Positions 20,467 to 42,715 of a stretch of 64,000 nt of DNA are shown one piece after another. The position numbers and the translations under genes were made by a program. The stretch comes from Nitrospirota bacterium (GTDB lineage: Bacteria > Nitrospirota > Thermodesulfovibrionia > Thermodesulfovibrionales > Dissulfurispiraceae). Within the stretch, counting starts at the first letter, position 1. The number at the start of each line of letters is the position of its first letter. Location: assembly GCA_040754455.1 (NCBI GenBank), contig JBFMCP010000001.1, positions 64,001 to 128,000 of the forward strand, written 5' to 3'. The notes beneath the pieces were generated by a model. It saw nothing but the letters and a program-made list of their open reading frames with translations. It was not told the DNA's origin and did not search any database.

Positions 20467-21351
20467 ATGCCCAAAAAACAGGATAAGAAGACCGCAAAAA
20501 AAGAAGTGGTGAGAACGCAGAAAAATTCCACAGATGTGGAAAATGTGAAAGATAAGTCGTTGAATTTCCGCGAGACGCTTTCCACAGCTGTGGAAAATTT
20601 CAGCTCTCAGCCTTTGTCTTATATTGAAGGGTTTCTTTCTCGCCGAGAGGTCACCGATTCGTTCAATGAGATGGTCGATGCCCTCGCACTCTATGAGGTC
20701 AAACATCGTGAGCTTTATAGAGAGGCAGGCTTTAAAAACTTCGCTGATTATTGCGAGTCGAGAGGCATTTCCAAAAGCCTGGGCTATGCATGGGCGAAGC
20801 ACGTCGAGGAGATCGGCCCTGATAGCTTCCCGGCCCTCGCCGAGAAAGTCGGTCTCAACCGCACCTTCTTCCGCGCTTTTGCCCTCATCCCTCACGAGAT
20901 ACAGCAGGCCGTTGTGAAAGGCAACAAGATCGAGGTCGACGGCAAAGAGTACGACTTCTCCGCTGATGGCGAATCGGTCAAACAGATTGTCATCGGCCTC
21001 GTGAAGTATGCAGAGAAACAGAAGGAAGAGGCGAGCAAAGAGCTTCAGGAAAAGGACAAGAAGCTGCGCCTCCTGGAGACCGAGAAGAACAATCTCCAGC
21101 GCATCCTGGATGAGTTCAACGAGCTCATCCCCGACAGTGTCGGCGAAACCAAGTGGGCAAAGTCCCGCGCCCTGGCTTCGGCGCTTTACGACAAGTTCGA
21201 TTCTGTCATGAGTTTCATCATCTTCGAGCAGCTCGATCTCAATGACGGCTCAGGCGTTGCCGCCTTAGAGGCCGATCTCCAGCGCATGTACAGCAGGATC
21301 ACCCACAAGATGGAGGAGCTTCAGAAATACAAACGGGGCGAGGCCCGGTAA
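20467..21351 (+). CDS. DNA-binding/coiled-coil protein upstream of transposase (DUF3102-like)
   Basis: LYREAGFKNFADYCESRGISKS HTH-like motif, coiled coil; abuts transposase. Confidence 0.6.
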   Translation: MPKKQDKKTAKKEVVRTQKNSTDVENVKDKSLNFRETLSTAVENFSSQPLSYIEGFLSRREVTDSFNEMVDALALYEVKHRELYREAGFKNFADYCESRGISKSLGYAWAKHVEEIGPDSFPALAEKVGLNRTFFRAFALIPHEIQQAVVKGNKIEVDGKEYDFSADGESVKQIVIGLVKYAEKQKEEASKELQEKDKKLRLLETEKNNLQRILDEFNELIPDSVGETKWAKSRALASALYDKFDSVMSFIIFEQLDLNDGSGVAALEADLQRMYSRITHKMEELQKYKRGEAR

Positions 21352-23303
21352 TGAACCCCTCGGGCGAATTCCCCCTCATGAACGCGCAGAATCTGCATCA
21401 GCAGGTATGCCCTCCCGTTGCCGGAGCCGACGCCTCTGACGGCGTCCCCGAAAAAGCCCGGCAGGAGGCCATTGCCCGTCTCACGCTCCTACGCATGCGC
21501 GACGAATATCGGGCCGCGCATCCAGGACGGAAAAAGACCGAAGTAGACAAAGAATTCGTCGATTCATACAACACCGGGCTCATCTATCAGCAACTCCACT
21601 CAATAGTGGGCAAGACCTCAGTGCAGACACTGTATCGTTGGGACAGCGAGCTCGATGGCACGCAGGACTGGACCCGCCTTGTACCTCGCTATTATCTGAA
21701 GGACAAAACGCCTCGGCTCAACCCCATCGAAGAACGCGTGTTCCTCGCCTTCCTTCTGAGCCCTAACAAGATACCGGTCGGCACCGCCACCAGATTCACC
21801 AGGCTCCTGCTGCAGCAGCGCGGCTATAAGACGGATAAATCAGATATGACCTTCCGCCGCTACGCCGAAGACTTCATGGCAAAGCACTACGATCTCTGGA
21901 CCCTCATGCGCGACGGCCAGAAAGCGCTCAGGGACAAAGTAGAGCCCTACATCAAACGCGACCCCTCTGTGCTTAATGTTGGAGACGCCCTTGTTGCAGA
22001 CGGCCATAGGCTCAACTTCCAGATCATCAATCCCTTCACCGGCAAGCCTTGCAGGGCTTGCATGGTGGCCTACATCGACTGGAAATCTTACGACCTCGCC
22101 GGGTACGAAATCATGGTCGAGGAAAACACCCAATGCGTTGCCTCGGCAATGCGCAACGCCATACTCCGGCTCGGCAAGACCCCAAAGGTCGCCTACCAGG
22201 ACAACGGCAAGGCATTCAAGGCCCGCTTCTTCCTGGGCTCCCCGAGCTTCGAGGAAGCGGGCTTCTACGGCCTCTTCGGCCGACTGAATATCGTCCCGCT
22301 CTTCGCTGCCCCTTACAACGCCCGCGCAAAGATCATCGAAAGGTGGTTTAAGGAGTTTTCTAACACCTTTGAGCGGCTCTTTCCGAGCTATGTCGGCTCA
22401 TCCATAGCAGACAAACCCGCCTATATGCTCAGGAACGAAAAGTTCCACAAAGCGCTTCATAACGAGTACATCCCCACAATCGAAGAGACCGTCCACCTCC
22501 TGGAGGCCTGGCTCGAATTCCACCGCTCACAGGAGTGCCCTCACGTTAAAGGCAAGTCGATCGGCCAGGTATTCGACGAAGGCAAAGGCCCCGGCGTTGA
22601 TGTCAATGCGCTTGACGACCTCATGATGGACGCCAGGATCACCCGCATCGATCGCAACGGCATCCGGTTCCTGGGCGCCGACTATTACGATGACAATCTC
22701 TACGGCCTCAAAGAGCAGGTCGTCATCAAATACAGCCTCTTCGACCTTTCCTATGTGAAGGTCTTCGCCATGAATGGAGAGTTCATCTGCCTGGCCCAGC
22801 GCATTATGCCGGTCCATCCGCTCGCACGCATCACCGGCACTGCTACAGATTACGAAGCAGTCAAGCGCGGCATCGCACAGCAGAAACGCCTCGAACGTCA
22901 GACCGTCAAACTTGCGAAGGAATACAACAGAGCAGGCGGAGCCGTCGAGCTTGACTGGCAGAAGGTCACCGAGATCACGCCACGCATAGTCGAGAAGCTT
23001 GAGCTGGAGGGCATTGCACTTCCTGCTATTGAAGAGCATATTCCCGACGAAGCGGTAAGCACCGAGCCTATCACCGAGAGCCTTGAGCCCAGAGAGGAGT
23101 CGATGGAAGTAACACGATTGGAGCCGCTGAAGAGGCCGTTCTTCGAGACGAATACTGAGCGCTACGAGTGGCACCTCAAGCATGGCATCTTTACCGACGA
23201 AGATGAAGCCTGGTGTGTATGGTTCAGAACAACAGATGAGTTCAGGATGCTTTATTCGGCATTTCAAAATCAGGGAAAGGAGGCAGCCCAAATTAAAAGT
23301 TAA
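21351..23303 (+). CDS. MuA-like DDE transposase
   Basis: HTH SVQTLYRW; triad VADGH, QDNGKAF, KIIERWF; Mu C-terminal domain NGIRFLGADY. Confidence 0.92.
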   Translation: MNPSGEFPLMNAQNLHQQVCPPVAGADASDGVPEKARQEAIARLTLLRMRDEYRAAHPGRKKTEVDKEFVDSYNTGLIYQQLHSIVGKTSVQTLYRWDSELDGTQDWTRLVPRYYLKDKTPRLNPIEERVFLAFLLSPNKIPVGTATRFTRLLLQQRGYKTDKSDMTFRRYAEDFMAKHYDLWTLMRDGQKALRDKVEPYIKRDPSVLNVGDALVADGHRLNFQIINPFTGKPCRACMVAYIDWKSYDLAGYEIMVEENTQCVASAMRNAILRLGKTPKVAYQDNGKAFKARFFLGSPSFEEAGFYGLFGRLNIVPLFAAPYNARAKIIERWFKEFSNTFERLFPSYVGSSIADKPAYMLRNEKFHKALHNEYIPTIEETVHLLEAWLEFHRSQECPHVKGKSIGQVFDEGKGPGVDVNALDDLMMDARITRIDRNGIRFLGADYYDDNLYGLKEQVVIKYSLFDLSYVKVFAMNGEFICLAQRIMPVHPLARITGTATDYEAVKRGIAQQKRLERQTVKLAKEYNRAGGAVELDWQKVTEITPRIVEKLELEGIALPAIEEHIPDEAVSTEPITESLEPREESMEVTRLEPLKRPFFETNTERYEWHLKHGIFTDEDEAWCVWFRTTDEFRMLYSAFQNQGKEAAQIKS

Positions 23304-23360: not shown

Positions 23361-24044
23361 ATGAGAAAAATATTTGCCCGTACCAGCAATGTGGGGGCTT
23401 TTGTTTCCGCGATGACACGGCTGCTAAAGCGCGAGGACGGTATTCCCGGAATGTCATTGATTTTTGGCGAGCCTGGACTTGGAAAGACGAGGACAACGCT
23501 CTGGTGGTGCGCTCAGAATGACGGCGTATTCATTCGCACAAAAAAGCTCATGACAGGCAGATGGTTACTTGAGGAGATAGTTGCCGAGCTCGGAGAGGCT
23601 CCGATGCGGAGGACTTCGGATTTATTCAGGCAAGCGGTTGATCAGCTCCTTGAAAGGCCGAGGACGCTCTTCATAGACGAGGCAGATTATCTTGCCCATG
23701 ACGCACGGGTTATCGAGACGCTCAGAGATTTGCACGACACAACAGGCACGCCTCTTGTGCTGATAGGCATGGATCAGGCGGACAAAAAGCTCATGCGCTT
23801 TAAGCATCTCTATGATAGGTTCTCAGAGATAGTCAGATTCCATCCTCTATCTGAATCGGATGTCGAATCAGTAGCCGAGCAGATGTGCGAGGTCAAGCTC
23901 TCTGATGATGCTGTCTCTTATATACATAATCAGGCAAACCGCTTCCGCAAGGTCGTTATCTGGTTGTATCGCTGCGAATCTATCGCTAAGGTGAATTCTT
24001 TGAAAGAAATTAACGCTGCGCATCTGCAAGGGGTGCGGAAATGA
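23361..24044 (+). CDS. MuB-like AAA ATPase
   Basis: Walker A GEPGLGKT, Walker B FIDEAD, LRDLHD, LVLIGM. Confidence 0.9.
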   Translation: MRKIFARTSNVGAFVSAMTRLLKREDGIPGMSLIFGEPGLGKTRTTLWWCAQNDGVFIRTKKLMTGRWLLEEIVAELGEAPMRRTSDLFRQAVDQLLERPRTLFIDEADYLAHDARVIETLRDLHDTTGTPLVLIGMDQADKKLMRFKHLYDRFSEIVRFHPLSESDVESVAEQMCEVKLSDDAVSYIHNQANRFRKVVIWLYRCESIAKVNSLKEINAAHLQGVRK

Positions 24045-29582: not shown

Positions 29583-30077
29583 TCACTGGTGAGGCTTTAG
29601 ATATTCCTTAATCGCCTCTTTAATCTCCTCAATATCGCTATCAGTAAGCTTTAGGAAAGGCCTCGCCGGTATCGTCACCTTTCTGCCTCTGCCGGCCTTC
29701 CCTCCGAACTGATGAATGGCGGCATAGACTTTATTGGTGCCTACTCGGGCGGATCTGGCATCCGATTTCCTGCTGATCGAGGCGGCGAGCTGCCCGGAGT
29801 CCTGGAGGATCTTCCGTCCGGCGAGCTTTTTGGCGATGCTCTTCCTCACCGCGCCCTTTTTGGTGTTCCACTTCCTTGCCCCTCCGAAAGCGCCCATTAT
29901 GGTCGATGCTGCAAGCGGTCTCCACCGGGGCCGTCCTTCGGCCTCGAAGTTCTCCTCCACCGCATCGTGCATGATTTCGGCTATCCGCCGCATCACCGGC
30001 GTCATATTGGTGCTGCGCCTCTGCAGCTCGGTGAGAAACCGCAGCGCCTCTTTATCTTTTACACTGATTTTAATCAT
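29583..30077 (-). CDS. Virion morphogenesis protein (Mu gpG-like)
   Basis: NFEAEGRPRW, LQDSGQLAASI, VGTN.VYAAIHQFG, IPARPFL. Confidence 0.9.
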   Translation of the reverse strand: MIKISVKDKEALRFLTELQRRSTNMTPVMRRIAEIMHDAVEENFEAEGRPRWRPLAASTIMGAFGGARKWNTKKGAVRKSIAKKLAGRKILQDSGQLAASISRKSDARSARVGTNKVYAAIHQFGGKAGRGRKVTIPARPFLKLTDSDIEEIKEAIKEYLKPHQ

Positions 30078-30106
30078 GACCGCGCCTCCTGTGGTAAAAT
30101 AGAATC

Positions 30107-30190
30107 AAAGCCTGTGGAGGCAAGGCCACCTTATCTGGGGCCGCTAACGGACCGGGTTATCCGGCAGGATGCTCCACGGGTTTATTTTGT
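30107..30190 (+). ncRNA. Candidate structured small RNA convergent with muF
   Basis: Extended -10 TGgTAAAAT 30092-30100; closing stem 30111-30122/30170-30180 with internal hairpins; U-rich tail. Confidence 0.5.
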
Positions 30191-31510
30191 ATAGAGCAGC
30201 GTGCCTGTCCTCTGCGCATCGAGATACTTCAGCTTGTCCGGCGAGAATGCCGTCGTCCCCTGCCATATATCGTCCACCAAATCAAAGACCACATATCCGG
30301 TTGCCTTGTCTGCCTTGTCCTGGTAGATGCCGATGTACCTTTTGCAGAGCCTGGTCTTATCTTTTCCCTTCACCCAGGTGAGCCAGATCTCCACGGGATC
30401 TTTAATGGTGTCCGCCAATAGTTTGAGATAGACCTCCCGGTCATCTCTCAGTACCTTATAGCCGCCTTTTAAACGATCTATAAACAGATCCTCTGAGATC
30501 ACCACCGGGTCATTGATCACGTCGCGGTAGACGATGGGCTTGCCGGCGCTGGTGCCAAACTCGCCGAGGAATGCGTTGACGTACTCTTCATTGCTCCACT
30601 TGCTCTTCTGATGAGGCGGCAGCAGCATATCCTTCTTCAGCGGTTTCGCAGGGAGCTTGTCGATCGGCGGCTTCTCGGAGATCGCAGCGCCGATAGTCTT
30701 GTAGCCTCTCTCCATCTCGGAAGGGTCAAAGGGCTTCGGGGTGAACGGCTCAAATGCCGCCTTGCCCGGATTGTAGTTCCATCCTGCATCCGGAGCGATC
30801 TTCATGCCGGTGACAGGATCTCTATAGGCCGTCACCTCCGTGAGCTCTCCGGTCTTCTTCGATATGAGTGCGTCCTGAGAGGAGAGCTTGCCCTCCGATG
30901 ATTCGACCGTCAGCCGTCTGCTCTTGAGATTGCCCTTGCTCAGTGCTCTTACTCTGCATCGGCATCCCCAGCCGTTCGGCGGGTAATGAGAGTTCCAAAA
31001 AGGATCGTCATATCTGAAGACCTTGCCGTGCAGCGCTGCATGGGCCGGTCTCGTGCGTGAGTCCATCACCGCGACATATTGCCAGTAGGGGCGATCATCG
31101 ATATTCTCCATAAACTCCTTATAGCGCCCGGCCATGTATGCGGTCTGCAGATTCGTCTGGTAGATCGTCCTCAGCCGGCGCGGCGAGCCGAGCTGCACTT
31201 CAGACGCCTTGCCCTCGGCATCCATTATCATCTTTTTGCCCCACCAGCCCTTTGCCTGGAGCCTGGTCGTGAGCTGCTTGCGAAACTCCTGCAGCGTAAG
31301 CCCTTCATTGAGAGACTTCTGCACCATGCCCCTGATGTCCTGAAGGATGTCCATGCGCATGACCTTTGCGACTGTGAAGGCTTTGGCATGGGCCTCCTGC
31401 CATGTATCCCACCAGTCCCAGCTGAAGGTATAGCCCTTGGATTTGAAGTACTCGATGGCCTTTTCGGGAGGCAGGCCTATCGCATAGAGGAGATCAGGCT
31501 TTGTCGGCAT
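30182..31510 (-). CDS. MuF (gpF) head morphogenesis protein with C-terminal PBECR2-like nuclease
   Basis: RLRTIYQTN, DSRTRPAH, PPNGWGCRCRV; C-terminal LADTIKDPVEIW..RYI..WQGTTAF..R.GTLLY. Confidence 0.85.
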   Translation of the reverse strand: MPTKPDLLYAIGLPPEKAIEYFKSKGYTFSWDWWDTWQEAHAKAFTVAKVMRMDILQDIRGMVQKSLNEGLTLQEFRKQLTTRLQAKGWWGKKMIMDAEGKASEVQLGSPRRLRTIYQTNLQTAYMAGRYKEFMENIDDRPYWQYVAVMDSRTRPAHAALHGKVFRYDDPFWNSHYPPNGWGCRCRVRALSKGNLKSRRLTVESSEGKLSSQDALISKKTGELTEVTAYRDPVTGMKIAPDAGWNYNPGKAAFEPFTPKPFDPSEMERGYKTIGAAISEKPPIDKLPAKPLKKDMLLPPHQKSKWSNEEYVNAFLGEFGTSAGKPIVYRDVINDPVVISEDLFIDRLKGGYKVLRDDREVYLKLLADTIKDPVEIWLTWVKGKDKTRLCKRYIGIYQDKADKATGYVVFDLVDDIWQGTTAFSPDKLKYLDAQRTGTLLYTK

Positions 31511-33017
31511 TCAGTCTTCCCCACAGCTCGGCCACGAAAATCGCACGTGCGAGCATCTCTTCGATTGCCGACGTATCCATGTTCGGATACGCCTCGGTGA
31601 GCTTTTCCATTATCTCCTCCGGAGAGCTGCCCTCATTTATAAGGTCAATAACAGGCTTTAAAACGCCTTCTACCTGCTTTTGCAATTCCTCGGGTGAGAT
31701 GGATTCGATAAGGTCATCTATGGCCTGCTGATCGGGAAAGAGTTCAGTTGAGCGCTCTGCGAACTCGGCCTCTGTGCTTCCGGGCTTCCGGGCTTCCGGA
31801 CTGACGACCTCGATGTCGCCTTCCTCAAATCCATATTCCCGCATGAAATATTGCTTCGTGAACTTCACCTGGCCGGTGTCGCTGAGAGTCTTGTCCCTCT
31901 CGGCCAGCGTCTTGTCCACGTCTTCTTCCTCGTAGAGCGAAAAAACCGGGCGCTCTCCACTGCCGAAGTTTAGCTCGAAGATCCACCCGATGAGCGTGTT
32001 GAAGACATTCTCGACAATCTTTTTATCCGCATCGCGAATGTCCTTCCGCACCTGCATGTGACCTTGTGTCGCTGCATAAGAACCGCCCTTAACTTCAGTG
32101 GTGAGGTTCTGGCCGAGAATGGCAATGCTGATCTCAGTCTTGCATGAGCTGATCAGCCGGTCATAGATATCCGATGAGCCGGAGCCGCTTCCCGATCCCT
32201 TGCCCGAGCCGCCGCCGATCTCGACGCTCGAATCATCCGGCACCACCGCAATTGCATCCTGCACCATGTTCTGCAGCATATCGGCGAGCGCGTCGTATTC
32301 CTTTCGATCGAGGCCCCTGGGCAGCTTGCCGATAATGAAAGGCATGCCGAATTTCTCAATGAAGGTCACCCAGAACTTATAGCCGCCTTTCTTGAAGGTC
32401 ACCGGCCAGAAGCACCGGGAGAGCAGAGGAAAACCGTAAGGGTTCTCATAGGTGGCCTCGTGCCTTGCGAGGAGGAAGCGCTTTGGGGGCAGCTTCTCGC
32501 CATTGATGCAATTCTCCTTGGTCCGGAGGCGCAGCTCGTTCTCTTCGCTGAAGACAAACCAGCGCTGCGGCTTGCCGACAACATCACGAGGAAGCCAGTA
32601 GCTACCCTTTTCCCACATGACTTCCAGCGGCTGATAACCGAAGAGCGGAGCATTCAGTATCTCGCCGATGATGCGGTCAATGTCGAGATTTTTGAATACA
32701 TCGGTGATGAGCTTGCTGGTGCGGCTCTTTGATTTGCCCCGGTCGATCTCCCACTCCAGGGACTTCACCCCGCTCTTCCGGCTCGTTACGCAGCCGCCCA
32801 GGTGGGCGTCGACGAGCAGCTCGTTATAGACGTCGATGTCCTTGCCCATCTTTTTTAGTACCGGGTCCGGGTTGGGCAGGTACATCCCCAAACTGTAGAA
32901 GTCGATCGACCGCTTCCTGGTCGCAACTTCCACCCCAAGATCGGCCAGCGAGCCTGCCTGCTTCTCGCTGAAATGCATAAAAGTCGTCGGATTTATCCAC
33001 AAACCCCTTTTTGGCAT
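31494..33017 (-). CDS. Portal protein (Mu gp29/DUF935)
   Basis: NPYGFPLL, FIEKFGMP, ISIAILGQNLTT, GSYAA..H. Confidence 0.9.
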   Translation of the reverse strand: MPKRGLWINPTTFMHFSEKQAGSLADLGVEVATRKRSIDFYSLGMYLPNPDPVLKKMGKDIDVYNELLVDAHLGGCVTSRKSGVKSLEWEIDRGKSKSRTSKLITDVFKNLDIDRIIGEILNAPLFGYQPLEVMWEKGSYWLPRDVVGKPQRWFVFSEENELRLRTKENCINGEKLPPKRFLLARHEATYENPYGFPLLSRCFWPVTFKKGGYKFWVTFIEKFGMPFIIGKLPRGLDRKEYDALADMLQNMVQDAIAVVPDDSSVEIGGGSGKGSGSGSGSSDIYDRLISSCKTEISIAILGQNLTTEVKGGSYAATQGHMQVRKDIRDADKKIVENVFNTLIGWIFELNFGSGERPVFSLYEEEDVDKTLAERDKTLSDTGQVKFTKQYFMREYGFEEGDIEVVSPEARKPGSTEAEFAERSTELFPDQQAIDDLIESISPEELQKQVEGVLKPVIDLINEGSSPEEIMEKLTEAYPNMDTSAIEEMLARAIFVAELWGRLNADKA

Positions 33018-33131
33018 GCGTACCCTCCTTGAAAGCCCGTTTCTAACCCCTCCAAATCTTTTAAATTTCGCTTATCTACCCTAAACAGCTACATGGGTAG
33101 CCCCGGAGGGGGTAAGGGGCCTTAAATCGCC

Positions 33132-33335
33132 TTAAATTTGGTCCAGCTTTCCGATGCTGCGGACAAAGTCTTTCCAGAACCTTCGCCGGGCTCCCCGGTT
33201 GTACCCCATGTGCCGGAGAGAGGAGTCGATGGTTTTGATGAACTTCTGCGCATTCTCGATCCTCCGCTTGAAAAGCCTGTTTCTCAATTTCTGAATGGGC
33301 TGTTTGAAAGCGTTAATAGCCTTTAAGAATTTCAT
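33132..33335 (-). CDS. Basic hypothetical protein
   Basis: MKFLKAI..., SD AGGAG, overlaps terminase end. Confidence 0.45.
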   Translation of the reverse strand: MKFLKAINAFKQPIQKLRNRLFKRRIENAQKFIKTIDSSLRHMGYNRGARRRFWKDFVRSIGKLDQI

Positions 33336-34656
33336 GAGAATCTCTCCTTTTTCCTGAAGATATATGGATAGGCCCGGTAGATTTATCCGAGGCCGCGTGA
33401 TTTGCCAGAGCGCATGCCCAGAATCTATCAGCATGGCCCCTCGCCTCGGATGCAGCGACATCGAAACGTATATTGCCGGCAGCAGTGGTCACTTTGCGGA
33501 TTGCGTGGAAGTCCTCCCTTATCTCGAGATCAGCAGGAATATACAAAAGTCTGTCCTCGATCGAGTTTTTCAGGGCGTAGCCCATGTCTTCTTTGACGGT
33601 GTTCGTAAAAGTTACGGCTTCTACCTTGTATTTGCCGAATGCGTCCTGAGCCTCTTCGCTCAACTGCATGCCGATACCAGTTGCATCGATGCAGAACCGG
33701 CGCATCCTCGGGTGCTTCAGTATTTCAAAGAGGGCGTCACGTTGCATATGGAAGGGCGTCTTCTCCATGATCTTGACCTGCCGGGTATACTTCACTGCGC
33801 CGAGCCTTTCGAGCACCCAGATTACCGAGAGGTCTTTTTTTCTGCCTATGTCCATGCCTCCGTAGAGATCGCCTGTAACAAGCTCAAGCGGCACTATGAG
33901 ATCATCCCTCTCAACGGATGAAAGCATTTCGTAGGTCATAAACGCTGATGCCTCGTCAACAGGAATGCAGCAGTATTCTTGCAGCCATGTGTTTTCATCA
34001 AAGCAGCTTTCGCGCTGCTCTTTAAGCCACGCCTCTTTTTCCTCATCGGTTGCCTTGCGCCGGAGAATCTTATCAACAAGCCCTTCCGCTACTGCAAGGT
34101 TAATATCCGTAATATGATAAGACCAGTTGAGCTTGCCCTTTTTTACGCTTTCTATGAATTTGTAATACCGGCAGTTGGTGCCGTTATGGGTTGACAGTAT
34201 GCGGAGAGGGAATCCCCAGGTGATACAAGGCCTGGCTGCAGACCAGAGAGCCTCGGCGTCTTCATGCCATGCGAACTCATCGAGGATGACCTTGCCGCCC
34301 TTAGAGCGGAAAGCCTTTGGATTGGATGAGAGGGCGTTAATCCTTCTGCCATTTGCGAAGGTAACCACATAAGCCTTTATGTCTTTCTCGGAGTCCAGGA
34401 CAACGGATCCGAGATACTGAGCGGCTTTATCAAAGAGCTTGGCCCACTTGGCGCAGTAGAGGATATATTCCCGCGCAGCAGATTCGTCTGCAGAGGAAAA
34501 CCATATATCCCATTTATCTTGGGCGCATTCGCGCACATCTTCGTATGCCTGCACATAGGTGGCACCGATACGGCGGGATTTCTCCCATATCTTTATTGGG
34601 GATTGGTCTTTGAGCCAGCGGATTTGATAGGGCAGGAAATATCTGCTTTCATTCAT
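33313..34656 (-). CDS. Terminase large subunit (Mu gp28-like)
   Basis: LPYQ, EKSRRIGAT, ILDEFAWH, GMDIGRKKD, IDATGIG, HADRFWA. Confidence 0.93.
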   Translation of the reverse strand: MNESRYFLPYQIRWLKDQSPIKIWEKSRRIGATYVQAYEDVRECAQDKWDIWFSSADESAAREYILYCAKWAKLFDKAAQYLGSVVLDSEKDIKAYVVTFANGRRINALSSNPKAFRSKGGKVILDEFAWHEDAEALWSAARPCITWGFPLRILSTHNGTNCRYYKFIESVKKGKLNWSYHITDINLAVAEGLVDKILRRKATDEEKEAWLKEQRESCFDENTWLQEYCCIPVDEASAFMTYEMLSSVERDDLIVPLELVTGDLYGGMDIGRKKDLSVIWVLERLGAVKYTRQVKIMEKTPFHMQRDALFEILKHPRMRRFCIDATGIGMQLSEEAQDAFGKYKVEAVTFTNTVKEDMGYALKNSIEDRLLYIPADLEIREDFHAIRKVTTAAGNIRFDVAASEARGHADRFWACALANHAASDKSTGPIHISSGKRRDSHEILKGY

Positions 34657-35048
34657 AATAACCCCAGTTCAGTCTCTATCTCTTTAACGGCGTCTTCGGT
34701 AAGACCCTTGCGCTCTTTGGGAGTGGTCTCGTCCTCAAGCACTTTCACACCCTGATATTGCTTGAGCGCGGCGATTGCCTTAGACATTGCGTATATGTTG
34801 TGAGGAGTCGGATTTGCCTTAGCTTCTTTGATTGTCAGCCGCGCTATCTCTATTATTTCCTCATACATATCCTTAGTCTGGTTAAGGTATTCCCTTCTCT
34901 TTTCATCCCACTGCCCTGCAATCTTCCAGTTGTAAAGGGTTTTCCTCGATACCTTGCCGCCAAGGATGCCGACGATCGCATCAAGTGATAATCCTTCCTG
35001 GACATAGAGCCGTTTTGCCTCATCGTTGTAAATCGCCAGTTTAGCCAT
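34653..35048 (-). CDS. Terminase small subunit-like HTH protein
   Basis: AKRLYV..VSRKTLYNWK..WDEKR; directly upstream of TerL. Confidence 0.75.
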   Translation of the reverse strand: MAKLAIYNDEAKRLYVQEGLSLDAIVGILGGKVSRKTLYNWKIAGQWDEKRREYLNQTKDMYEEIIEIARLTIKEAKANPTPHNIYAMSKAIAALKQYQGVKVLEDETTPKERKGLTEDAVKEIETELGLL

Positions 35049-35615: not shown

Positions 35616-35790
35616 CGAAAAACCTCCATCCGGTTTTTGAGTCCATCTTATCTTTTGATCTTCATTATTTAATATCGATTAAGTCGGTAACACTCCCCGA
35701 TATCGCTCCGGTAAACTGAAGCCAGATTGAAGAAAAAAAACGGGGTCCCCGGAAAGTCGCAGACTTTTGGGGGCTCAGAAAGGAGGTTAT

Positions 35791-36867
35791 ATGCCGAAGT
35801 GGATTGCGATCATGAGGACCGGCACCTTCACGGATTCAGAAGGCAAAGAGCATAACTTTACAGAAAAGGATCTCGATGCCATCGTCGCAAAGTATAACCC
35901 GAAATTCCATGAGGCTCCAGAGGTGATCGGGCATCCTAAAAGTAACAGCCCCGCCTATGGCTGGGTCAAGGCCCTGAAGCGCGAAGGCGACACGCTTTTC
36001 TATGAGCCCCGGGATCGTGTAGCCGAGTTCCAGGAGATGCTCGACAAAAAGATGTTCAAAAAGCGGTCGGTCCGGCTTAATTCCAAAATCGGCCTGGTGC
36101 ATGTCGGCTGGCTCGGCGCGATGCCGCCTGCGATCAAAGGGCTTCCGGATGTTGCTTTCAATGATGATGAGGACGGGATCACCTTCGAATTTGCTGAATA
36201 CCGCTTCCCGATGATCGGACGGATGTTCCAGAAGGTCAGGGAATTCATTATCGAAAAGTTTGGCACCGAGACAGCGGACAAGATCATTCCCAGTTGGGAG
36301 ATCGAAGACTTGCAGCGCATGGAGCCCGAAACGGTTTCATCTGCTGCATTCAGTGAACCATCAACAAAAGGAGGCGAAATGCCAACAGAAAGGGAAAAGC
36401 AACTGGAAGAGCAGCTCGCGGAGGAGCGGCGGAAAAGCGCCGATTTTTCCGAGCAGCTCAAAGCGGCTAACCAGAGGGCGGCTGCTCTTGAAGCTGAAAA
36501 CAGAAGGAGAGATTTTTCATCTTTCTGCGAAGGCCTCACCAAGGAAGGCAAGCTGCCTCCTGCGGTAGTGCCTGTAGTGCTCGACTTCATGGAGATCCTC
36601 TCCGGCGTCGAGACGTTCGACTTCGCTGAGGGCGAGGGCAAGAAGGCGGCCAAACCGGTCGATGTCTTCAAAACATTCCTCGGCGGCCTCGGCAAGGTCA
36701 TCGAATTCGGCGAGTACGCCACAAAGACCAAAACCGGCGACGCAGGAAATAAGGATCGTGAAGAGCTCATCAGCGACTTCATGGCTAAAAACAAGGACGC
36801 TTCCTACAAAGAGGCCGTGCTCGCGGTTTCGAAGGAGCATCCTGAATTATTCAAAGAGGAGGTATAA
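35791..36867 (+). CDS. Prohead protease/scaffold (Mu gpI/Z-like)
   Basis: IGHP, PAYGWV, KKRSV, HVGWLGAMPPAIKGL; coiled-coil C-terminus. Confidence 0.85.
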   Translation: MPKWIAIMRTGTFTDSEGKEHNFTEKDLDAIVAKYNPKFHEAPEVIGHPKSNSPAYGWVKALKREGDTLFYEPRDRVAEFQEMLDKKMFKKRSVRLNSKIGLVHVGWLGAMPPAIKGLPDVAFNDDEDGITFEFAEYRFPMIGRMFQKVREFIIEKFGTETADKIIPSWEIEDLQRMEPETVSSAAFSEPSTKGGEMPTEREKQLEEQLAEERRKSADFSEQLKAANQRAAALEAENRRRDFSSFCEGLTKEGKLPPAVVPVVLDFMEILSGVETFDFAEGEGKKAAKPVDVFKTFLGGLGKVIEFGEYATKTKTGDAGNKDREELISDFMAKNKDASYKEAVLAVSKEHPELFKEEV

Positions 36868-36873
36868 CGCGAT

Positions 36874-37254
36874 ATGATGGGGCAAACATCAGGTATCGAG
36901 AAGTCTGCCAAGTGTACAGCGGCGGTGACGGCGTTCACCATTGCCAAGTTCGGCGCCGATGATGACACCTTGTCGGCAGCCACAGCCTCGACGGAGAATC
37001 TTATAGGTATCTTCCAGCACGACACAGCAGCTGCCGGCGACGAGGTGAGGGTAATGCTGACCGGCGTCAGCAAGGTCGTGCTCGGCGGAACGGTCGCGAG
37101 AGGCGACTGGCTCACCTCTGATGCCAATGCTCATGCGGTCGCTATCGGAGCAGTGGCAGGCACTAACTACAACTCAATCGGCCGTGCGCTTGCCTCGGGT
37201 GTGGCGGGAGACATCATCCCCGTGCTGCTCGCACCCGGCAGGCCGCAGGGATAA
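36874..37254 (+). CDS. Capsid decoration/cement protein (DUF2190-like)
   Basis: Small A/G/V-rich, GDWLTSDANAHAV, IGRAL...GDII; between protease and capsid. Confidence 0.75.
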   Translation: MMGQTSGIEKSAKCTAAVTAFTIAKFGADDDTLSAATASTENLIGIFQHDTAAAGDEVRVMLTGVSKVVLGGTVARGDWLTSDANAHAVAIGAVAGTNYNSIGRALASGVAGDIIPVLLAPGRPQG

Positions 37255-37275
37255 TCCAAAAGGAGGGATACCGTA

Positions 37276-38214
37276 ATGCCGGAACCAAGAACGCTGCATA
37301 TAGACAGCACACTTTCAAGCCTCTCGTTGAAATACCGCAACGAGCAAATGATCTGGCCGCTCGTCTTGCCTATAGTCAAGGTGAACAAGCGGTCGGACAA
37401 ATTCATGGTGTACAACAAAGCGGACAGCTACAAGCTGGTCGATGACAAGATCGGTCCGAAGTCTTTGCCGAATGAAGTCGACTGGGGTGTAACAACCAGC
37501 AATTACTCGGTGAAGGATCACGCCCTGGGCGACTGGCTGCCGCAGGAGGATATCGACAATGCGGACAATCCGCTCCAGCCTGAAGTCGATACCAATGACT
37601 TTCTCAATTTGCTCCTCGACATCGCGCAGGAGCAAAGAGTAGCGTCCCTGGTGTTCAACGCCGCCAATTATCCCACCGGCAACAAGGTGACTCTTTCGGG
37701 TACGGGGCAGTGGGGCCAGTCGGCGGACGATCCAATCGGAAACCTCATTACCGCGATCGAGTCGTGTTTCGTTCGCGCAAACACACTCGTCATAGGGGCA
37801 GACGCCTGGATGGTGCTCCGCAAGCTTCCTGAGATGCTCGATGCCGTGAAAGGGTCTTCGCGCTACCAGGGATCTCCCGGAGGCCTTGTAACACCTTCCG
37901 AGCTGGCCGGCCTGCTCGAAATCGACAATGTCCTCATCGGCAGAGGGCGGTACATTTCCTCGAAAGAGGGTCAGACGCCGACCTATACCCGCCTCTGGGG
38001 CAAACATGCAGCTGCGCTCTATGTGGAGAAAAATCCCGGAGTCAAGTCGATCACCTTCGGCGTAACCTTTAGCGAGATGCTCAGACAGACATCGCGGGAG
38101 TTCGATGTAAAACGCGGCGTGAAAGGTGCGCACTACATCAAATGCGCATGGAACTCCGACGAGAAGATCGTAGCCCCGGACCTGGGCTACATGATCGAAA
38201 ATGCAGTGCCGTAA
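37276..38214 (+). CDS. Major capsid protein
   Basis: 312 aa, LSSLSLKYRN, W...DDP, position, strong SD. Confidence 0.8.
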   Translation: MPEPRTLHIDSTLSSLSLKYRNEQMIWPLVLPIVKVNKRSDKFMVYNKADSYKLVDDKIGPKSLPNEVDWGVTTSNYSVKDHALGDWLPQEDIDNADNPLQPEVDTNDFLNLLLDIAQEQRVASLVFNAANYPTGNKVTLSGTGQWGQSADDPIGNLITAIESCFVRANTLVIGADAWMVLRKLPEMLDAVKGSSRYQGSPGGLVTPSELAGLLEIDNVLIGRGRYISSKEGQTPTYTRLWGKHAAALYVEKNPGVKSITFGVTFSEMLRQTSREFDVKRGVKGAHYIKCAWNSDEKIVAPDLGYMIENAVP

Positions 38215-38236
38215 GAAATCGTTAAATCTTAATTGA

Positions 38237-38259
38237 GGGGGCGGTACATAGCCGCCCCC
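38237..38259 (+). terminator. GC hairpin after capsid gene
   Basis: GGGGGCGG-7nt-CCGCCCCC; no U tract. Confidence 0.4.
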
Positions 38260-38283
38260 ATCATAAACATTGAGGGAGGAACA

Positions 38284-38454
38284 ATGCCGAAGTACATAGT
38301 CGAAGATACGCATATCATGCACGGCTCCAAGGGTGCCAAAGAAGCAAAGATGTATGCGCCCGGAGATGAAATCGAGCTGACTGAGGAAGAGGCCGCAGCG
38401 CTCGGATCGCGTGTCAAGCCTGCTCCTGAGCCTGAGAAGAAGGAAAAGAAGTAA
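38284..38454 (+). CDS. Small head-associated protein
   Basis: YAPGDEIELTEEEAAAL motif, SD GGAGG. Confidence 0.6.
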   Translation: MPKYIVEDTHIMHGSKGAKEAKMYAPGDEIELTEEEAAALGSRVKPAPEPEKKEKK

Positions 38455-38882
38455 TGCCTTACTGCACGCTTGACGACATCAAGAAGGCTATCCCCGAGAG
38501 CAACATCATCCAGCTCACGGATGATAACGGCCTCGGGGCGGTCGATCAGGCCAAGGTCGACGATGCCATTGCTTATGCGGACCAGATCATTGACGGCTAT
38601 CTGAGGGGGAGATATACGCTCCCCCTCTCCTCAGTACCCGGCCTCATAGGCAAGCTGTCGGTCGACCTGGCCATCTTCCATCTCTACGGAAGGAAGTTCG
38701 AGATGGAGCTGCCCGAGGGCATCATGGCGCGCTACAAGAACGCGATCAAGCTCCTGGAGCAAATACAGAAGGGGCTGCTGTCCCTGGGTATAGAGTCATC
38801 GAGCACCGAAGCCGGTCACTACAAGACCAACAAAACATCAGAAGACAGGACCTTCAGTAAAGATGTCCTGGATGCCTACTGA
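38454..38882 (+). CDS. Head-tail adaptor (Mu gp36/DUF1320)
   Basis: YCTLDD, IDGYLRGRYTLPL, RYKNAIKLLEQI. Confidence 0.88.
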   Translation: MPYCTLDDIKKAIPESNIIQLTDDNGLGAVDQAKVDDAIAYADQIIDGYLRGRYTLPLSSVPGLIGKLSVDLAIFHLYGRKFEMELPEGIMARYKNAIKLLEQIQKGLLSLGIESSSTEAGHYKTNKTSEDRTFSKDVLDAY

Positions 38883-38896
38883 ACAGGAGGGATATC

Positions 38897-39379
38897 ATGG
38901 CCAGCAGGCGGATAGACGATCTTCACCCCTCAGTGCAGAAAAGGGCGGTCTTGCTGCTCGACAGGTGTGCTGAGCAGGGCATACAGGTAATCCTTATCTG
39001 CACCCAGCGGGACATGAAAGAGCAAGCCGCATTGTACGCACAGGGGCGGGAAGAGATAGCAAAGGTCAATGCACTCAGGGCAGTTGCCGGAATGGCCCCT
39101 CTCAAGAGCATTACAGAGAACAGGATCGTCACTAATGCAAAGCCGGGCGATTCACTCCACAATTACGGCCTTGCCTTCGACGTTGTCCCTCTGGAGGCAG
39201 GAAAGCCCATATGGGATTCAGGGCACCCCGTATGGCAGACCATCGGCAAGATAGGGAAAGAGTGCGGGCTTGAATGGGCGGGAGACTGGAAGAGGTTTAA
39301 AGAGTTTCCGCATTTCCAGTATACGGGCGGTCTTTCGCTCGCCCAGGTCAGACAGGGGCAGAGGCCCGAAAACGCATAG
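38897..39379 (+). CDS. Endolysin, M15 peptidase family
   Basis: R..EQAALYAQGR, SLHNYGLAFD, WAGDW, EFPHFQ. Confidence 0.9.
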   Translation: MASRRIDDLHPSVQKRAVLLLDRCAEQGIQVILICTQRDMKEQAALYAQGREEIAKVNALRAVAGMAPLKSITENRIVTNAKPGDSLHNYGLAFDVVPLEAGKPIWDSGHPVWQTIGKIGKECGLEWAGDWKRFKEFPHFQYTGGLSLAQVRQGQRPENA

Positions 39380-39390
39380 GGGGGGGAACT

Positions 39391-39846
39391 ATGAGCTTAT
39401 TGAGTGCGATACCGGTGATAGGCGGACTTGTTGAGAAGGCATTCGGCATTATCGACAAGGCCGTCGAGGATAAGGACCTTGCAAACAAGATCAAGCAGGA
39501 AATCCAGATGACGGCCATGAATCACGACTACAGCGCATACGAAAAAGAGCTGGAGGCGAAAGCAGCAGCCCTCGTTGGTGAGATCAAGGGGCAGTCATGG
39601 CTTCAGAGAAACTGGAGGCCAGTGCTCATGCTCACCTTCACCTACATTATCGCCCACAATTACATACTTGCGCCGATCATCAGGATGTTCAGCTTCGGCG
39701 CCGGTATGCCGGTCCTTGAGATTCCTCCTGACATGTGGGACCTGCTGAAGCTTGGCATAGGCGGATATATTGTGGGCAGGTCGGCGGAAAAGATTGTCAA
39801 AGACTATCGAGGGCAGGGGGTGAGTCATGATTCAAGCAGGCGATAA
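39391..39846 (+). CDS. Holin (3TM/GTA-holin family)
   Basis: SWLQRNWRP, LGIGGYIVGRSAEK. Confidence 0.82.
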   Translation: MSLLSAIPVIGGLVEKAFGIIDKAVEDKDLANKIKQEIQMTAMNHDYSAYEKELEAKAAALVGEIKGQSWLQRNWRPVLMLTFTYIIAHNYILAPIIRMFSFGAGMPVLEIPPDMWDLLKLGIGGYIVGRSAEKIVKDYRGQGVSHDSSRR

Positions 39847-40348
39847 GATTCTGGTTAAACCGCTCAGGAACATCATATCGGAGATCATCTCCGGCAAGGT
39901 GAATTCGCTCTACTCTCATGTAGAGCCGATCGTTGATAGCAGGGGGGGCGCTCTCGATTGCACATTTCCCAGAAACCGCATCAAGAGCATCTCTCAATAT
40001 TTTCACGGGAAGCACAGAGTACTCATCATCAGACCAGCGAAGCCGTACACCGCTGAGGAGTTGCTCGCCTGGACTGCAAAGGCGCTTGAAAAGGATGGCA
40101 CGTTCTATGATCTCTTCCGCCTCTGCTCTGCGCTCAATAACAAGCGCTGGAAAATGCGCCGGAATATGTGGGCCTGCGATACCGCCACCATGGATTGCGA
40201 TAAAGCAATCGGGCGGCATACCTGGGCGGAGTTCCCGTTTGTGAGTTATGAGATGTACCATATCCTCGCCCGTGAGGGCATCTATAAGATCGTGTATCAG
40301 GCCGAGCGTCCGACGATGGGCGATTTCCAGAAACTGGTGAGGGGGTAA
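39827..40348 (+). CDS. Permuted papain-like (NlpC/P60, YiiX-like) protein
   Basis: QAGD, YSHV, YD, WAC order typical of permuted NlpC/P60. Confidence 0.55.
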   Translation: MIQAGDKILVKPLRNIISEIISGKVNSLYSHVEPIVDSRGGALDCTFPRNRIKSISQYFHGKHRVLIIRPAKPYTAEELLAWTAKALEKDGTFYDLFRLCSALNNKRWKMRRNMWACDTATMDCDKAIGRHTWAEFPFVSYEMYHILAREGIYKIVYQAERPTMGDFQKLVRG

Positions 40349-40350
40349 GT

Positions 40351-40827
40351 ATGGCACGGGTGCTGACAAAGTTCGGATTCAGGCGGCTTTTCACCATCGA
40401 GGAGCGGGCAGGCATCACCGCGGCCGCGGCGAGCGATGTGGTGCTCAAGACCATTATGGATGACCTGGCCTTTTCCGACGAGGTGGACCTCGACGATCCT
40501 GCAACGATCGAAGGCGTGAATTATCTCGTTGCCGGCGGGCTCATCACCGCAGAGCGGGCAGCAGCGATCCTTGCCACGCCTGCACCGGCAGCGCTCGAAC
40601 CGGTGATCAATTACACGGTAACCGTCAAGGCCCAGGCCGATATTACGCTGCAAAACAAATGGGGCGCTGTCGAGCGTCCCTGGGGATATGAAGTAAGGGC
40701 GGATTTCCGCAACGAGGCAACCGGCGAGGTGATCAATGAAGTGATAACCTTCCCTGCAGTTCCTACGGATGCAGAAGTAAACACAAAGATCACTGAAATC
40801 ATTAATCGTCTGAGGACCAATGGCTAA
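40351..40827 (+). CDS. Hypothetical virion-associated protein
   Basis: FRRLFTIEER...VDLDDP...LITAERAAAIL. Confidence 0.6.
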   Translation: MARVLTKFGFRRLFTIEERAGITAAAASDVVLKTIMDDLAFSDEVDLDDPATIEGVNYLVAGGLITAERAAAILATPAPAALEPVINYTVTVKAQADITLQNKWGAVERPWGYEVRADFRNEATGEVINEVITFPAVPTDAEVNTKITEIINRLRTNG

Positions 40828-42715
40828 CTACGTCAGCACACAGAGCGGCGACTGGAACAACCCAGCTACCTGGGGCGGCAGTGGTTACCCGCAGCTCGCC
40901 GGCGACACCTGCACGATCTCTGCGGGGCATACGGTTACGTATAACGTGCAGTCCGCAGTCGAGCTCGGACAGATCACTGTCAACGGTATTCTCAAGGCGA
41001 GCCGGGCAGTGAGTACAAAGCTCACGCTCGGGCATGCTGAGATTCTCATCAATAATGGCGGCGAGATGGACTGGGGGAAAGTTACTGACAAAATACCTAC
41101 CAGCGTTGTCGCAGAAATACTATGGAACACCACTGGAGACAATAGCAAGGGGATTAATGTCGCAGATGGGGGGAAGCTCAGCATTTACGGGGATCCTGCC
41201 TATTACGGCAGCACCAGGCGCACAGTATTGTATGCAGACTGGACGAGCGGGCAGAGCTTTCAGGTTGTAGGCGATCTGACAGGCAAATGGGCTGCAGGGC
41301 ATATCATTTATGTCCACAAAGGGGCGGCATATGCGTCTTCGACTACTGATATCACCAACCCGCTCACGATCAATACCGTCACTTACGACGGCACGAAGTC
41401 TACCGTCACAATCAATGAGGCTTTTCCGGGCGATACCTACAGAGCCGGCGGCATAGTGCTCAATGTGTCACGGAATGTAAAGCTCGGCAAGCTTAATCCG
41501 CAGACGAATATTGGGCAGACCAACAGCAACCGTCCGAGGATTAACGATGGAAATACTGACATTAATCACAATAATGTGAACATCTATGAAGCTTTGTTGA
41601 CCGGTTTCCATTCTCTGGTGCATACCTATAATTTAAAATTCAATGCAGTGATGCGGAATGGCGGATATGCACTTGCTAATTTTTCTATTGACGCCAGGAA
41701 TGCGTCGATTGACGGTATTTTTATATCCAACAGTTTTGGAGTCTACATTCATAATACATCTACCATTTCCGGTATTTTTGTATCGCACGTAAGGTCTCTC
41801 GACAACCTGCAGAACTGTATTATTCAGAATGCCGAAGTCCTGAGCAGCTCAACGGGAGCTCTCGGCTGGTACACGATCAATAATAAGATCATCGACTCGT
41901 ATTTTTACGCCAACTATGCTGCTTATCCATCGGTTTCCTCGTTCAATTATATGAAAGGCGGAGCGCTCGGCTACTCTCCTGAAGGGTTCTCCATGCCGAA
42001 CACGTACGACTCGAATTTCCAGCAACAGACGAAGCATTTCTTGAGCAACGTCAAGCTGCCTGCTGCGGGGCTGTCGCTCAATTTCAGAAATAATTCCGGA
42101 TTGAAAGCGCGGGTATTCTCCGAGCATCACAATCAGGTGAAGGACGCTGTGTATCAGTATGACGCTTTTGCCGATCTCATCAAAAACACCTCTACGCTCC
42201 GCACCGGCGGCGCGTCTTCATCGATCGAAGCTGTGCCGCTCTCAAACTGCTCAACGATCAATGATGTGATGCTCTTCGAATGGTACGAGGAGAACGTGCC
42301 GGCAATGCAGCATACGCGCTCGATCTACATGAAGGGCGAGGGCTGGTCCGGCTTCCCGCTGCATACCGAGCTGTACTTCGAGGCGGAGTACCTCGACCAG
42401 GCCTCTGGTGTGCATACGGCAAAGGCGCAATCAACGACTGTGCTCGCCAACAATATCGACTGGACAGAGTTTCCTGTCACCTTTACCCCTGCGCAGAGCG
42501 GGTGCGTGATATACCGAGCATATCTGAAAAAGTATCAGGCAGCCGCAAAGGTCTATGTTGATACACAGCTCAATAGATTGGGGATGCCTGCCAAACGCGC
42601 GGTGTGGTCACAAGGCGAGTGCAGGTTGATGGTTTCGAATTATGATGATGTCGGCTTCAACATGCCTCTTGAGACAGTGGATATTTCTTCGCAATACGAG
42701 GTGATCGAGTTATGA
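40820..42715 (+). CDS. Fibre/spike-like protein with G8-like N-terminus and Asn-rich beta-helix-like core
   Basis: SGDWNNPATW, GHTVTY, beta-rich repeats. Confidence 0.6.
   Translation: MANYVSTQSGDWNNPATWGGSGYPQLAGDTCTISAGHTVTYNVQSAVELGQITVNGILKASRAVSTKLTLGHAEILINNGGEMDWGKVTDKIPTSVVAEILWNTTGDNSKGINVADGGKLSIYGDPAYYGSTRRTVLYADWTSGQSFQVVGDLTGKWAAGHIIYVHKGAAYASSTTDITNPLTINTVTYDGTKSTVTINEAFPGDTYRAGGIVLNVSRNVKLGKLNPQTNIGQTNSNRPRINDGNTDINHNNVNIYEALLTGFHSLVHTYNLKFNAVMRNGGYALANFSIDARNASIDGIFISNSFGVYIHNTSTISGIFVSHVRSLDNLQNCIIQNAEVLSSSTGALGWYTINNKIIDSYFYANYAAYPSVSSFNYMKGGALGYSPEGFSMPNTYDSNFQQQTKHFLSNVKLPAAGLSLNFRNNSGLKARVFSEHHNQVKDAVYQYDAFADLIKNTSTLRTGGASSSIEAVPLSNCSTINDVMLFEWYEENVPAMQHTRSIYMKGEGWSGFPLHTELYFEAEYLDQASGVHTAKAQSTTVLANNIDWTEFPVTFTPAQSGCVIYRAYLKKYQAAAKVYVDTQLNRLGMPAKRAVWSQGECRLMVSNYDDVGFNMPLETVDISSQYEVIEL

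Follow-up and report, generated by a model that had tools for sequence, protein, structure and literature searches.

A conserved, structured small RNA predicted to be encoded convergently to PBECR-type muF genes of Mu-like phages

Introduction

In the polymorphic toxins of the MuF class, a MuF domain encoded after the portal gene carries a variable C-terminal effector, the producer is assumed to need protection, and an extra downstream element is found only when a C-terminal domain is present; small open reading frames (ORFs) of less than 150 amino acids (aa) lie behind 89.4% of 191 MuF toxin genes (Jamet et al., 2017; PMC5576092). The subject of this study is the 104-nucleotide (nt) gap between the genes muF and gpG in a stretch of 64,000 nt from a Nitrospirota bacterium (contig JBFMCP010000001.1, positions 64,001 to 128,000), here called the window, the content of which is a Mu-like transposable prophage. 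By its architecture, the MuF protein encoded there belongs to the MuF polymorphic toxins, sharing the features just mentioned, but it has no downstream immunity ORF: the next gene is gpG, and the gap appears to hold a non-coding RNA gene convergent to muF, a kind of element that the accessible part of the paper of Jamet et al. does not consider. The sequence-only reading of this DNA had drawn attention to the gap; the finding is real and is broader than that reading had seen.

The C-terminal domain of this MuF protein is PBECR2 (PF18810), and the description of such domains as predicted virion-packaged RNases fused to MuF agrees with the present case, but the accessible sections of the source mention neither a partner or immunity factor nor an RNA in the neighbourhood (Iyer et al., 2017; PMC5512222). 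A 2026 preprint places the PBECRs among the colicin-like BECR RNases and reports a protein immunity (DUF4926) for another MuF-fused BECR family, RNA being unmentioned in its available text (doi 10.64898/2026.08.28.747851). A literature search for MuF in connection with small or antisense RNAs, or for RNA immunity of polymorphic toxins, brought up no such report, most subscription journals and supplements lying outside its scope. The apparent link of PBECR domains that look active with a downstream RNA gene, as it emerges from the sequence comparisons below, is new. Nuclease-tipped MuF proteins occur widely among temperate phages, and where no immunity ORF is present, a conserved RNA gene at that place is a concrete candidate for what lets producer and lysogen survive.

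Toxin-antitoxin (TA) systems of type III (ToxIN, CptIN, TenpIN) likewise combine an endoribonuclease with an adjacent structured non-coding RNA, but their RNA, as far as the available sources describe it, is a direct-repeat array, which is encoded upstream on the strand of the toxin gene and which the toxin processes. In the present case, the RNA would be a single unit (or two different forms in tandem) that is located downstream, convergent and self-promoted, and the nuclease is predicted to have a BECR fold and is part of a virion protein. The term "type III TA-like" used in the sequence-only reading is apt as an analogy; in the stricter sense it fails, there being no upstream tandem repeat array and no ToxN-type nuclease. 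Small convergent RNAs with their own promoter and overlapping 3' ends are known from the antisense RNAs of type I TA systems and from OOP of phage lambda, and they are often prophage-borne and expressed in the lysogen. Type I toxins are small membrane peptides, OOP faces cII, and the RNAs act by base pairing. The convergent, 3'-overlapping layout is the same here, but the facing gene encodes a virion protein of 442 aa, the fold, loops and junctions are conserved beyond the needs of pairing, and an orphan copy exists. Contact-dependent inhibition (CDI) and Rhs loci, finally, are known for orphan toxin-tip and immunity cassettes. These are matched by displaced PBECR2 tips, each with its own RNA (loci L132 and L142), and by an RNA without a nuclease (genome G020), but the candidate immunity element is here an RNA convergent to the toxin gene and not a protein.

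Results and discussion

The predicted small RNA in the muF-gpG gap

Judged by its sequence and that of its relatives, the gap is a separate, conserved gene for a predicted structured small RNA on the plus strand, which has its own promoter and is linked to PBECR-type MuF tips. The features on which this is based are as follows.

29583-30077, minus strand: gpG, Mu G-like virion morphogenesis or tail completion protein, Phage_tail_S (Pfam PF05069, E 9.4e-31; PHROG 26, E 8.4e-38)
30078-30181: muF-gpG gap, 104 nt
30182-31510, minus strand: muF (ORF, 442 aa), MuF head protein with C-terminal PBECR2 (Pfam PF04233, E 6.8e-30, and PF18810, E 2.1e-28; PHROG 220, minor head protein and DNA pilot, E 1.5e-107)
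30191-30574, minus strand: coding part of PBECR2, MuF residues 313-440 (PF18810, 99.4 bits against a cut-off of 27.1)
30076-30105, plus strand: promoter as read by the promoter scan, ATGACC-18-TAGAAT
30092-30100, plus strand: second reading of the promoter, extended -10 TGgTAAAAT
30107-30190, plus strand: predicted small RNA of about 80 nt (match of covariance model R1 at 30101-30195, 96 bits, E 6.8e-24)
30111-30119 with 30172-30180, plus strand: P1 closing stem, 9 base pairs (bp), 6 of them G-C (covariation; the same helix from RNAalifold)
30124-30142, plus strand: P2 hairpin of 4 bp, a bulged A, 2 bp and the hexaloop UUAUCU (30131-30136)
30143-30151, plus strand: unpaired junction with conserved AAC (CGYNAACRRA; conserved columns in alignments A4 and A6, no helix from RNAalifold)
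30152-30164, plus strand: P4 hairpin CCGG-GUUAU-CCGG with a 5-nt loop
30165-30171, plus strand: junction strand CAGGAUG, of which AGGAUG is invariant in 12 class A sequences
30181-30190, plus strand: U-tract, covering the muF stop codon (30182-30184) and the last codons

Most of what the sequence-only reading had listed is found in this layout: muF ends in a PBECR2-like domain, the structural gene gpG comes next, the closing stem, the hexaloop arm and the CCGG-GUUAU-CCGG arm are present and are also obtained with RNAalifold on the homologues, and the U-rich tail runs over the muF stop. The extended -10 can be read in the sequence as well, although the promoter scan prefers the other reading. 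The third arm of that description (CCG-CTAA-CGG) had to be given up, as it draws on bases already taken up by the 3' strand of the hexaloop arm and finds no support in the homologues, which show a conserved unpaired junction instead; the fold is therefore a three-way and not a four-way junction.

The ends of the small RNA were placed from the position of the -10 (5') and from the U-tract (3'). On the other strand, the promoter overlaps the gpG start codon and ribosome-binding site, and its -35 is degenerate in the window, though the extended -10 is present. P1 followed by UUUAUUUUGU on the plus strand gives the layout of an intrinsic terminator, which is found under a relaxed rule (enclosed length up to 95 nt) and missed by the rule for simple hairpins. 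The remainder of the RNA is complementary to the muF-gpG spacer of the late transcript, so that the layout would be convergent with a 3' overlap, if both strands are transcribed as predicted. The gpG ribosome-binding site is located upstream of the RNA's own -10 and thus outside the RNA.

Several known types of element were considered for the gap. ARAGORN found no tRNA gene in the window or in 18 related loci, and Rfam 15 gave no match inside the gap at E <= 10 and none at the gathering score in 18 and a further 19 related loci. Self-cleaving ribozymes in circularly permuted form (hammerhead, twister) were considered because the three-way junction is permuted in some relatives, and the same Rfam searches (gap; 18 and 19 related loci) gave no match to them. 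A small protein beginning at the AUG in the junction was rejected: the ORF varies from 5 to 108 aa across 11 homologues and is therefore not conserved. A pseudoknot between the hexaloop and GGAUG was rejected too; it fits the U/C change in the loop, but is broken by locus L124, which has an A in the loop, and two of its five pairs fail in the orphan copy.

Conservation and covariation of the fold

For the sequence of the window alone, the fold is only modestly more stable than shuffled sequences: over 86 nt the z-score is -2.24, with 6 of 200 shuffles as stable, and over 123 nt it is -1.3 to -1.4 on either strand. Since the single sequence is only mildly unusual, the case rests on the relatives, and the strong evidence is comparative. 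The relatives were gathered without reference to the RNA. The MuF query against viral contigs yielded 239 relatives, of which 80 loci were kept, and a PBECR2 domain query added 5 loci from genome contigs and 19 from metagenome contigs; the locus search used the closer PBECR2 alignment A3, the distant alignment A2 being too diverse. Every close PBECR2 relative carries the same element at the same position. Covariance model R1, built on 11 sequences, was then applied to 78 sources, namely the window and 77 of the 142 collected loci, and separated 12 members, referred to as class A (E 3.8e-27 to 1e-20), from the next match at E 0.12. A scan of the viral contigs with a DNA pattern gave 37 stretches, 6 of them the element and 31 chance matches.

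When the 12 class A sequences are aligned, standard pairs occupy 97.0% of 271 pair cells, as opposed to 34-55% in six controls in which the partners were shifted by 1-3 columns. Double-sided changes are seen in 11 of 23 pairs, 10 of them in P1 (out of 12) and one as a switch between G-C and U-A in P2. The covariation score is 0.511 compared with 0.214 in shuffled alignments, none of 500 of which reached it, and RNAalifold on the homologues independently predicts P1, P2 and P4. The helices behave differently: P1 is swapped almost wholly between lineages; P2 is almost invariant, with the one pair being G-C or U-A (the variant in 5 of the 12 sequences); P4 is conserved without any double change among the 12. 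P2, the AAC junction and AGGAUG stay constant next to the changing P1. On these comparisons, the predicted RNA fold is a conserved, covarying three-way junction.

The strand of the element

All helices can also be formed on the sense strand, where 92.3% of the cells hold standard pairs, and the element is located in the 5' untranslated region of gpG. It might thus be no RNA gene at all, but a DNA site, a mere terminator, or a structure of the late mRNA on the sense strand that serves processing, stability or the control of gpG translation. The strand-specific signals, however, point the other way. On the strand opposite to muF, the standard pairs reach the 97.0% given above, and there are 17 G-U cells against 4 A-C cells. 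Under the promoter-scan criteria, a sigma-70-like promoter site is found in 16 of 24 distinct gaps of 60-200 nt in antisense and in 1 of 24 in sense direction. In most loci, the -35 TTGACA abuts the gpG start codon, and the homologues have TTGACA, a spacer of 16-17 nt and (TGn)TAnnnT in the same place. A closing stem with a U-tract occurs in 36 of 39 distinct regions downstream of PBECR2 in antisense and in 6 of 39 in sense direction, as compared with 9.6 on average and 14 at most in 20 mononucleotide shuffles; counting simple hairpins with a U-tract only, the numbers are 15 in antisense, 0 in sense and 1.2 in shuffles. Because the excess of G-U, the promoter and the stem with U-tract all agree, the RNA is assigned to the strand opposite to muF. 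Furthermore, the ORF list of the window contains no gene convergent on gpG that would require a terminator, and the G-U pairs, together with the circular permutation described below, speak against a DNA site. An origin other than an RNA gene is considered highly improbable.

Circularly permuted form and orphan copy

A second, shorter element, referred to as class B, replaces the class A fold in L003 and L133, and stands in tandem with it in L119, L121 and L126. Class B retains P2 and the AAC junction, and also the inner part of P1, now under a tetraloop cap; its closing stem is new and lies at the former place of P4, so that the ends of the element open at P4. The GGAUG strand is retained in L003, L119 and L121 and reads GUGUU in L133, where the capped helix has changed in sequence with its pairing preserved. 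On the basis of these alignments, class B is a predicted circular permutation of the same three-way junction, which argues for a function that depends on structure.

Among 151 related genomes, the RNA model is found in 3: the window's own genome, in which it is single-copy, one genome with a MuF-PBECR2 locus, and G020. Further genome sets added nothing new (2 of 151 for the order and 1 of 151 for the phylum, each count including the window's genome). In the copy of G020 (58 bits, E 3.9e-12), P1 is new, P2 is retained and P4 is formed as CCGC/GCGG with one compensatory change; this copy shows CACGAAG in place of the junction strand CAGGAUG and has an extended -10 of its own. A six-frame search found no PBECR2 match in this genome, which is 99% complete. 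The orphan copy, located at L148:7765-7859 (G020 contig 14), is flanked on one side by a VIT-VWA gene and on the other by the gene for an MmeI-type restriction-modification protein of 1698 aa, which has a Cys-rich CPCC tail; genes for a nucleotidyltransferase and for a PIN protein lie in the neighbourhood. An ORF of 96 aa without a Pfam match begins at the 3' end of the orphan RNA, overlapping its last bases (7857).

These variants bear on the explanation that the layout suggests at once, i.e. that the RNA is a cis-antisense regulator, which would pair with the muF-gpG spacer of the late mRNA and tune or silence MuF-PBECR2 and gpG, the pairing triggering cleavage or blocking read-through. Such a role would be in keeping with a convergent RNA that has its own promoter, a 3' end over the muF stop and full complementarity to the late transcript, and that occurs only where MuF bears a possibly harmful C-terminal domain. 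Complementarity, however, comes free at any sequence, and a purely complementary antisense RNA would not need invariant loops and junctions beside a P1 that is replaced. The invariant P2 loop and junctions are left unexplained by this role, as are the circular permutation and the orphan copy, which has neither muF nor PBECR2 near it in its genome; moreover, the gpG ribosome-binding site is outside the RNA. Overall, we regard cis-antisense regulation as rather unlikely.

Association with long MuF proteins

In a survey of 84 loci with gpG on the same strand as muF, the gap has up to 12 nt in 35 loci, and in 31 of these the MuF ORF is shorter than 384 aa (judged by length to have no long C-terminal extension; 2 of the 31 went through the Pfam scan). 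Gaps of 60-200 nt are found in 28 loci, and for 23 of these the MuF ORF or open frame spans 364-764 aa. Among the loci with gaps of this size, L121, L129 and L130 have a frame shortened by the start of the locus or by an in-frame stop, and L012 seems to derive from an L013-like locus by deletion. Another 20 loci have ORFs inserted in a longer gap, a Dam methylase among them. A Pfam scan of 32 of 77 MuF ORFs, chosen across the length classes, gave PBECR2 in 8, and the other long MuF forms showed PBECR1, PBECR3 and MuF_C only as rows below the threshold (E 0.085 to 1e-6). A profile comparison of PBECR2 with other long-MuF C-terminal domains indicated no relation (probability 0.1). Behind the other long forms lie RNAs of several unrelated classes, each with a closing stem and compensatory changes in small alignments, and none of these classes is in Rfam.

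Tip and RNA also appear to move together. Behind PBECR2 of the L006 type, all three loci concerned (L006, L132 and L142) have one and the same RNA (96-98% identity), which has a -10 of its own. L132 and L142 carry in addition a displaced second PBECR2 tip that lacks a start codon and, in L142, is broken by a stop; this tip is followed by a different RNA and then by an L006-like promoter and gpG. Between L006 and L132, the promoter is common as far as the -10 and divergent beyond. These tandem cassettes of tip and RNA are located at L132:1328-2001 and L142:1431-1900. In the second RNA of L132 and L142, 7 nt of one hairpin loop (AGUCAGC) are the complement of 7 nt of the other (GCUGACU), which points to a kissing-loop contact.

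The RNA could, as a further explanation, be an accessory ("moron") small RNA (sRNA) that has nothing to do with PBECR2 and acts on host mRNAs, host defence or rival phages from a permissive site between F and G. Accessory genes typically have their own promoter and terminator, other relatives carry a Dam methylase gene at the same junction, RNA classes are exchanged among similar PBECR2 domains, and the orphan copy lies among genes of the defence type (MmeI-like restriction enzyme, nucleotidyltransferase, PIN protein). Against this, the RNA gaps are found almost solely behind long MuF (23 of 28), tight junctions follow MuF of less than 384 aa (31 of 35), and the loci with a Dam insert have a short MuF and no such RNA. 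Nor does the conserved loop have a complementary target in the window beyond chance: allowing up to 2 mismatches, there are 3 matches, the element itself included, for 3.96 expected, and the two others both fall within ORFs. An accessory sRNA is quite improbable in our view.

The PBECR2 domain and loci without the RNA

Pfam recognises only Phage_Mu_F and PBECR2 in the MuF protein and no ToxN/AbiQ, CptN or TenpN family, and PF18810 reaches 102.3 bits in a six-frame search of the genome. An AlphaFold2 model of MuF residues 296-442 has a mean pLDDT of 84.9. The active site of the BECR fold is described as an S/T in strand 4 together with an H or R near the N-terminal helix (Iyer et al., 2017; PMC5512222); in the window's PBECR2, R63 and T124/T125 (domain numbering) are candidates that would fit this general description, the assignment being drawn from the alignment.

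Three loci of the PBECR type lack the gap: that of Mu, where gp30 overlaps G, that of Pseudomonas phage H71 with a gap of 1 nt, and L023 with 11 nt. In an alignment of ten domains, the same three are without an R or H at the position of R63 and without an S/T at that of T124/T125. The C-terminal PBECR of Mu gp30 is called inactive in the accessible text of Iyer et al. (PMC5512222). The domains accompanied by the RNA have R or H at the first position in 7 of 7 cases and S/T at the second in 6 of 7.

Proposed function

From the comparisons described, we tentatively prefer the explanation, with a probability close to even though short of it, that the RNA is a trans-acting partner of the nuclease, serving as its antidote or as a decoy substrate. 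Such a partner is favoured because the loops and junctions are conserved beyond what an antisense RNA needs and the fold survives permutation, and because the RNA travels with the tip, is missing where the tip looks inactive and exists as an orphan. The comparisons bear out part of the interpretation given in the sequence-only reading, namely a covarying RNA gene opposite to muF with its own promoter and the lack of a protein immunity ORF, and they link the RNA to PBECR-type domains in numerous phage lineages. Transcription from a sigma-70-type promoter abutting the gpG start codon would run convergently to the late genes and yield an RNA of about 80 nt. It would fold into the variable P1, the almost invariant P2 (with bulged A and hexaloop UUAUCY), the short P4 and the conserved junction strands, and end at P1 and the U-tract across the muF stop. 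Made from the prophage regardless of the state of the late genes, it would act in trans on the PBECR2 RNase domain, most likely by binding it, or else as a preferred substrate or decoy. Lysogen and producing cell might in this way escape harm from the virion-packaged nuclease, and lysogens might be protected against incoming copies of it.

The C-terminal domain and the RNA would, in addition, move jointly as one cassette, in the manner of the toxin-immunity cassettes known from polymorphic toxins, and displaced nuclease tips would keep their RNAs. The wider proposal, that PBECR-type RNases in Mu-like virions are generally held in check by dedicated small RNAs, which form swappable cassettes and, as orphans, blunt incoming nucleases, is possible but doubtful.

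A number of observations weigh against the trans-acting partner or limit the comparisons behind it. L006 lacks the S/T and nevertheless carries the RNA, and the candidate catalytic residues are themselves inferred from the alignment and the general description in the paper. The alignment used for the pair counts was fitted to the model, and the loci are kin, so that the counts overstate independence, the class A rows corresponding to about five lineages. The PBECR2 domains of L131 and L132 nest in the class A/B clade beside L001 (support 86/82), yet are followed by a class C RNA; the tree has 24 rows and leaves out the duplicates L125-L130, L134 and L138-L140 as well as L083, the frame of which was not settable. 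The orphan copy could be the leftover of a lost prophage. The fold searches gave nothing clear: with the domain model, Foldseek returned no match at E <= 0.001, and in the VIA fold search the best Z was 5.1, a TA toxin (Z 4.5) and 3ao9 (Z 4.3) being at noise level. The chain title of 3ao9 is "C-terminal domain of sequence-specific ribonuclease", which we take to be colicin E5. Finally, the F-G junction takes other inserts too and may be a hot spot for accessory genes. One such insert is found in L013, where the RNA is absent and a convergent TTGACA promoter precedes an ORF of 74 aa with a ribosome-binding site (L013:3991-4215, minus strand of the locus); MuF has 499 aa there with an unknown C-terminal domain, and the 74-aa ORF, which has no Pfam match, could be the protein counterpart of the RNA.

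Should the RNA neutralise or guide the nuclease, RNA antitoxins would extend past abortive-infection modules to effectors delivered by virions, which could also account for orphan copies in bacterial genomes. The wider proposal, if true, would make this the first case of an RNA-based immunity among polymorphic toxins delivered by virions, and would extend the RNA folds by a family with a circularly permuted three-way junction among its members. Whatever the function, several phage RNA families outside Rfam are defined as a set with a specific genomic partner, and a rule for finding such RNAs can be given: where MuF is long, the strand convergent to muF should be inspected.

Genomic setting and further inserts at the junction

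The surroundings of the muF-gpG junction in the window comprise the following genes.

18073-18729, minus strand: repressor
21351-23303: MuA transposase
23361-24044: MuB
31494-33017, minus strand: portal (Pfam PF06074, E 4.2e-99)
33313-34656, minus strand: large terminase, packaging block
35767-38214, plus strand: protease, scaffold and major head genes, followed by the tail genes

The 3' end of the portal gene overlaps the start of muF (at 31510), and MuF is encoded directly after it. The packaging block with a DNA-binding protein, the large terminase, portal, MuF and gpG (29583-35048, minus strand) is inverted relative to the block of protease, scaffold, major head and tail genes (35767-50912, plus strand), unlike in phage Mu and BcepMu, where the same genes all run in one direction. 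Due to this inversion, the end of gpG faces the early and middle operon, the plus-strand ORFs of which reach up to 29557.

The Dam-type insert is an N6-adenine methyltransferase (PF02086, E 6e-30 in L014:3261-4061) encoded between a short muF and gpG in 13 loci (L014, L017, L054, L061, L057, L058, L060, L062-L065, L071 and L018), the relatives being 68-69% identical to the L014 protein. Gaps of 850 nt seemingly free of ORFs in L057 and similar loci were rejected as such, an intact Dam methylase gene lying within. In L074, L075 and L077, MuF is fused to an ADP-ribosyltransferase domain (PF03496, E 3.5e-09); the stretch of 565 nt behind it and before gpG (about 4600-5170 in L074) has reverse-strand ORFs of 66 and 107 aa without a Pfam match.

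The RNA in the gap of L050 (L050:3842-3944, antisense) has a motif that resembles a tRNA T-arm (GGTTCGAGTCC), and behind it a long, acceptor-like stem; ARAGORN does not call a tRNA at this place. The same muF-gpG layout as in the window is present in a cultured phage with a harmless host, Rhodobacter phage RcapMu (21525-21616, corresponding to L163:1351-1442), which is carried by Rhodobacter capsulatus SB1003 and where the muF-gpG gap of 92 nt is without annotation in the record and carries on its antisense strand TTGAAA-17-TATATT and a stem-rich RNA.

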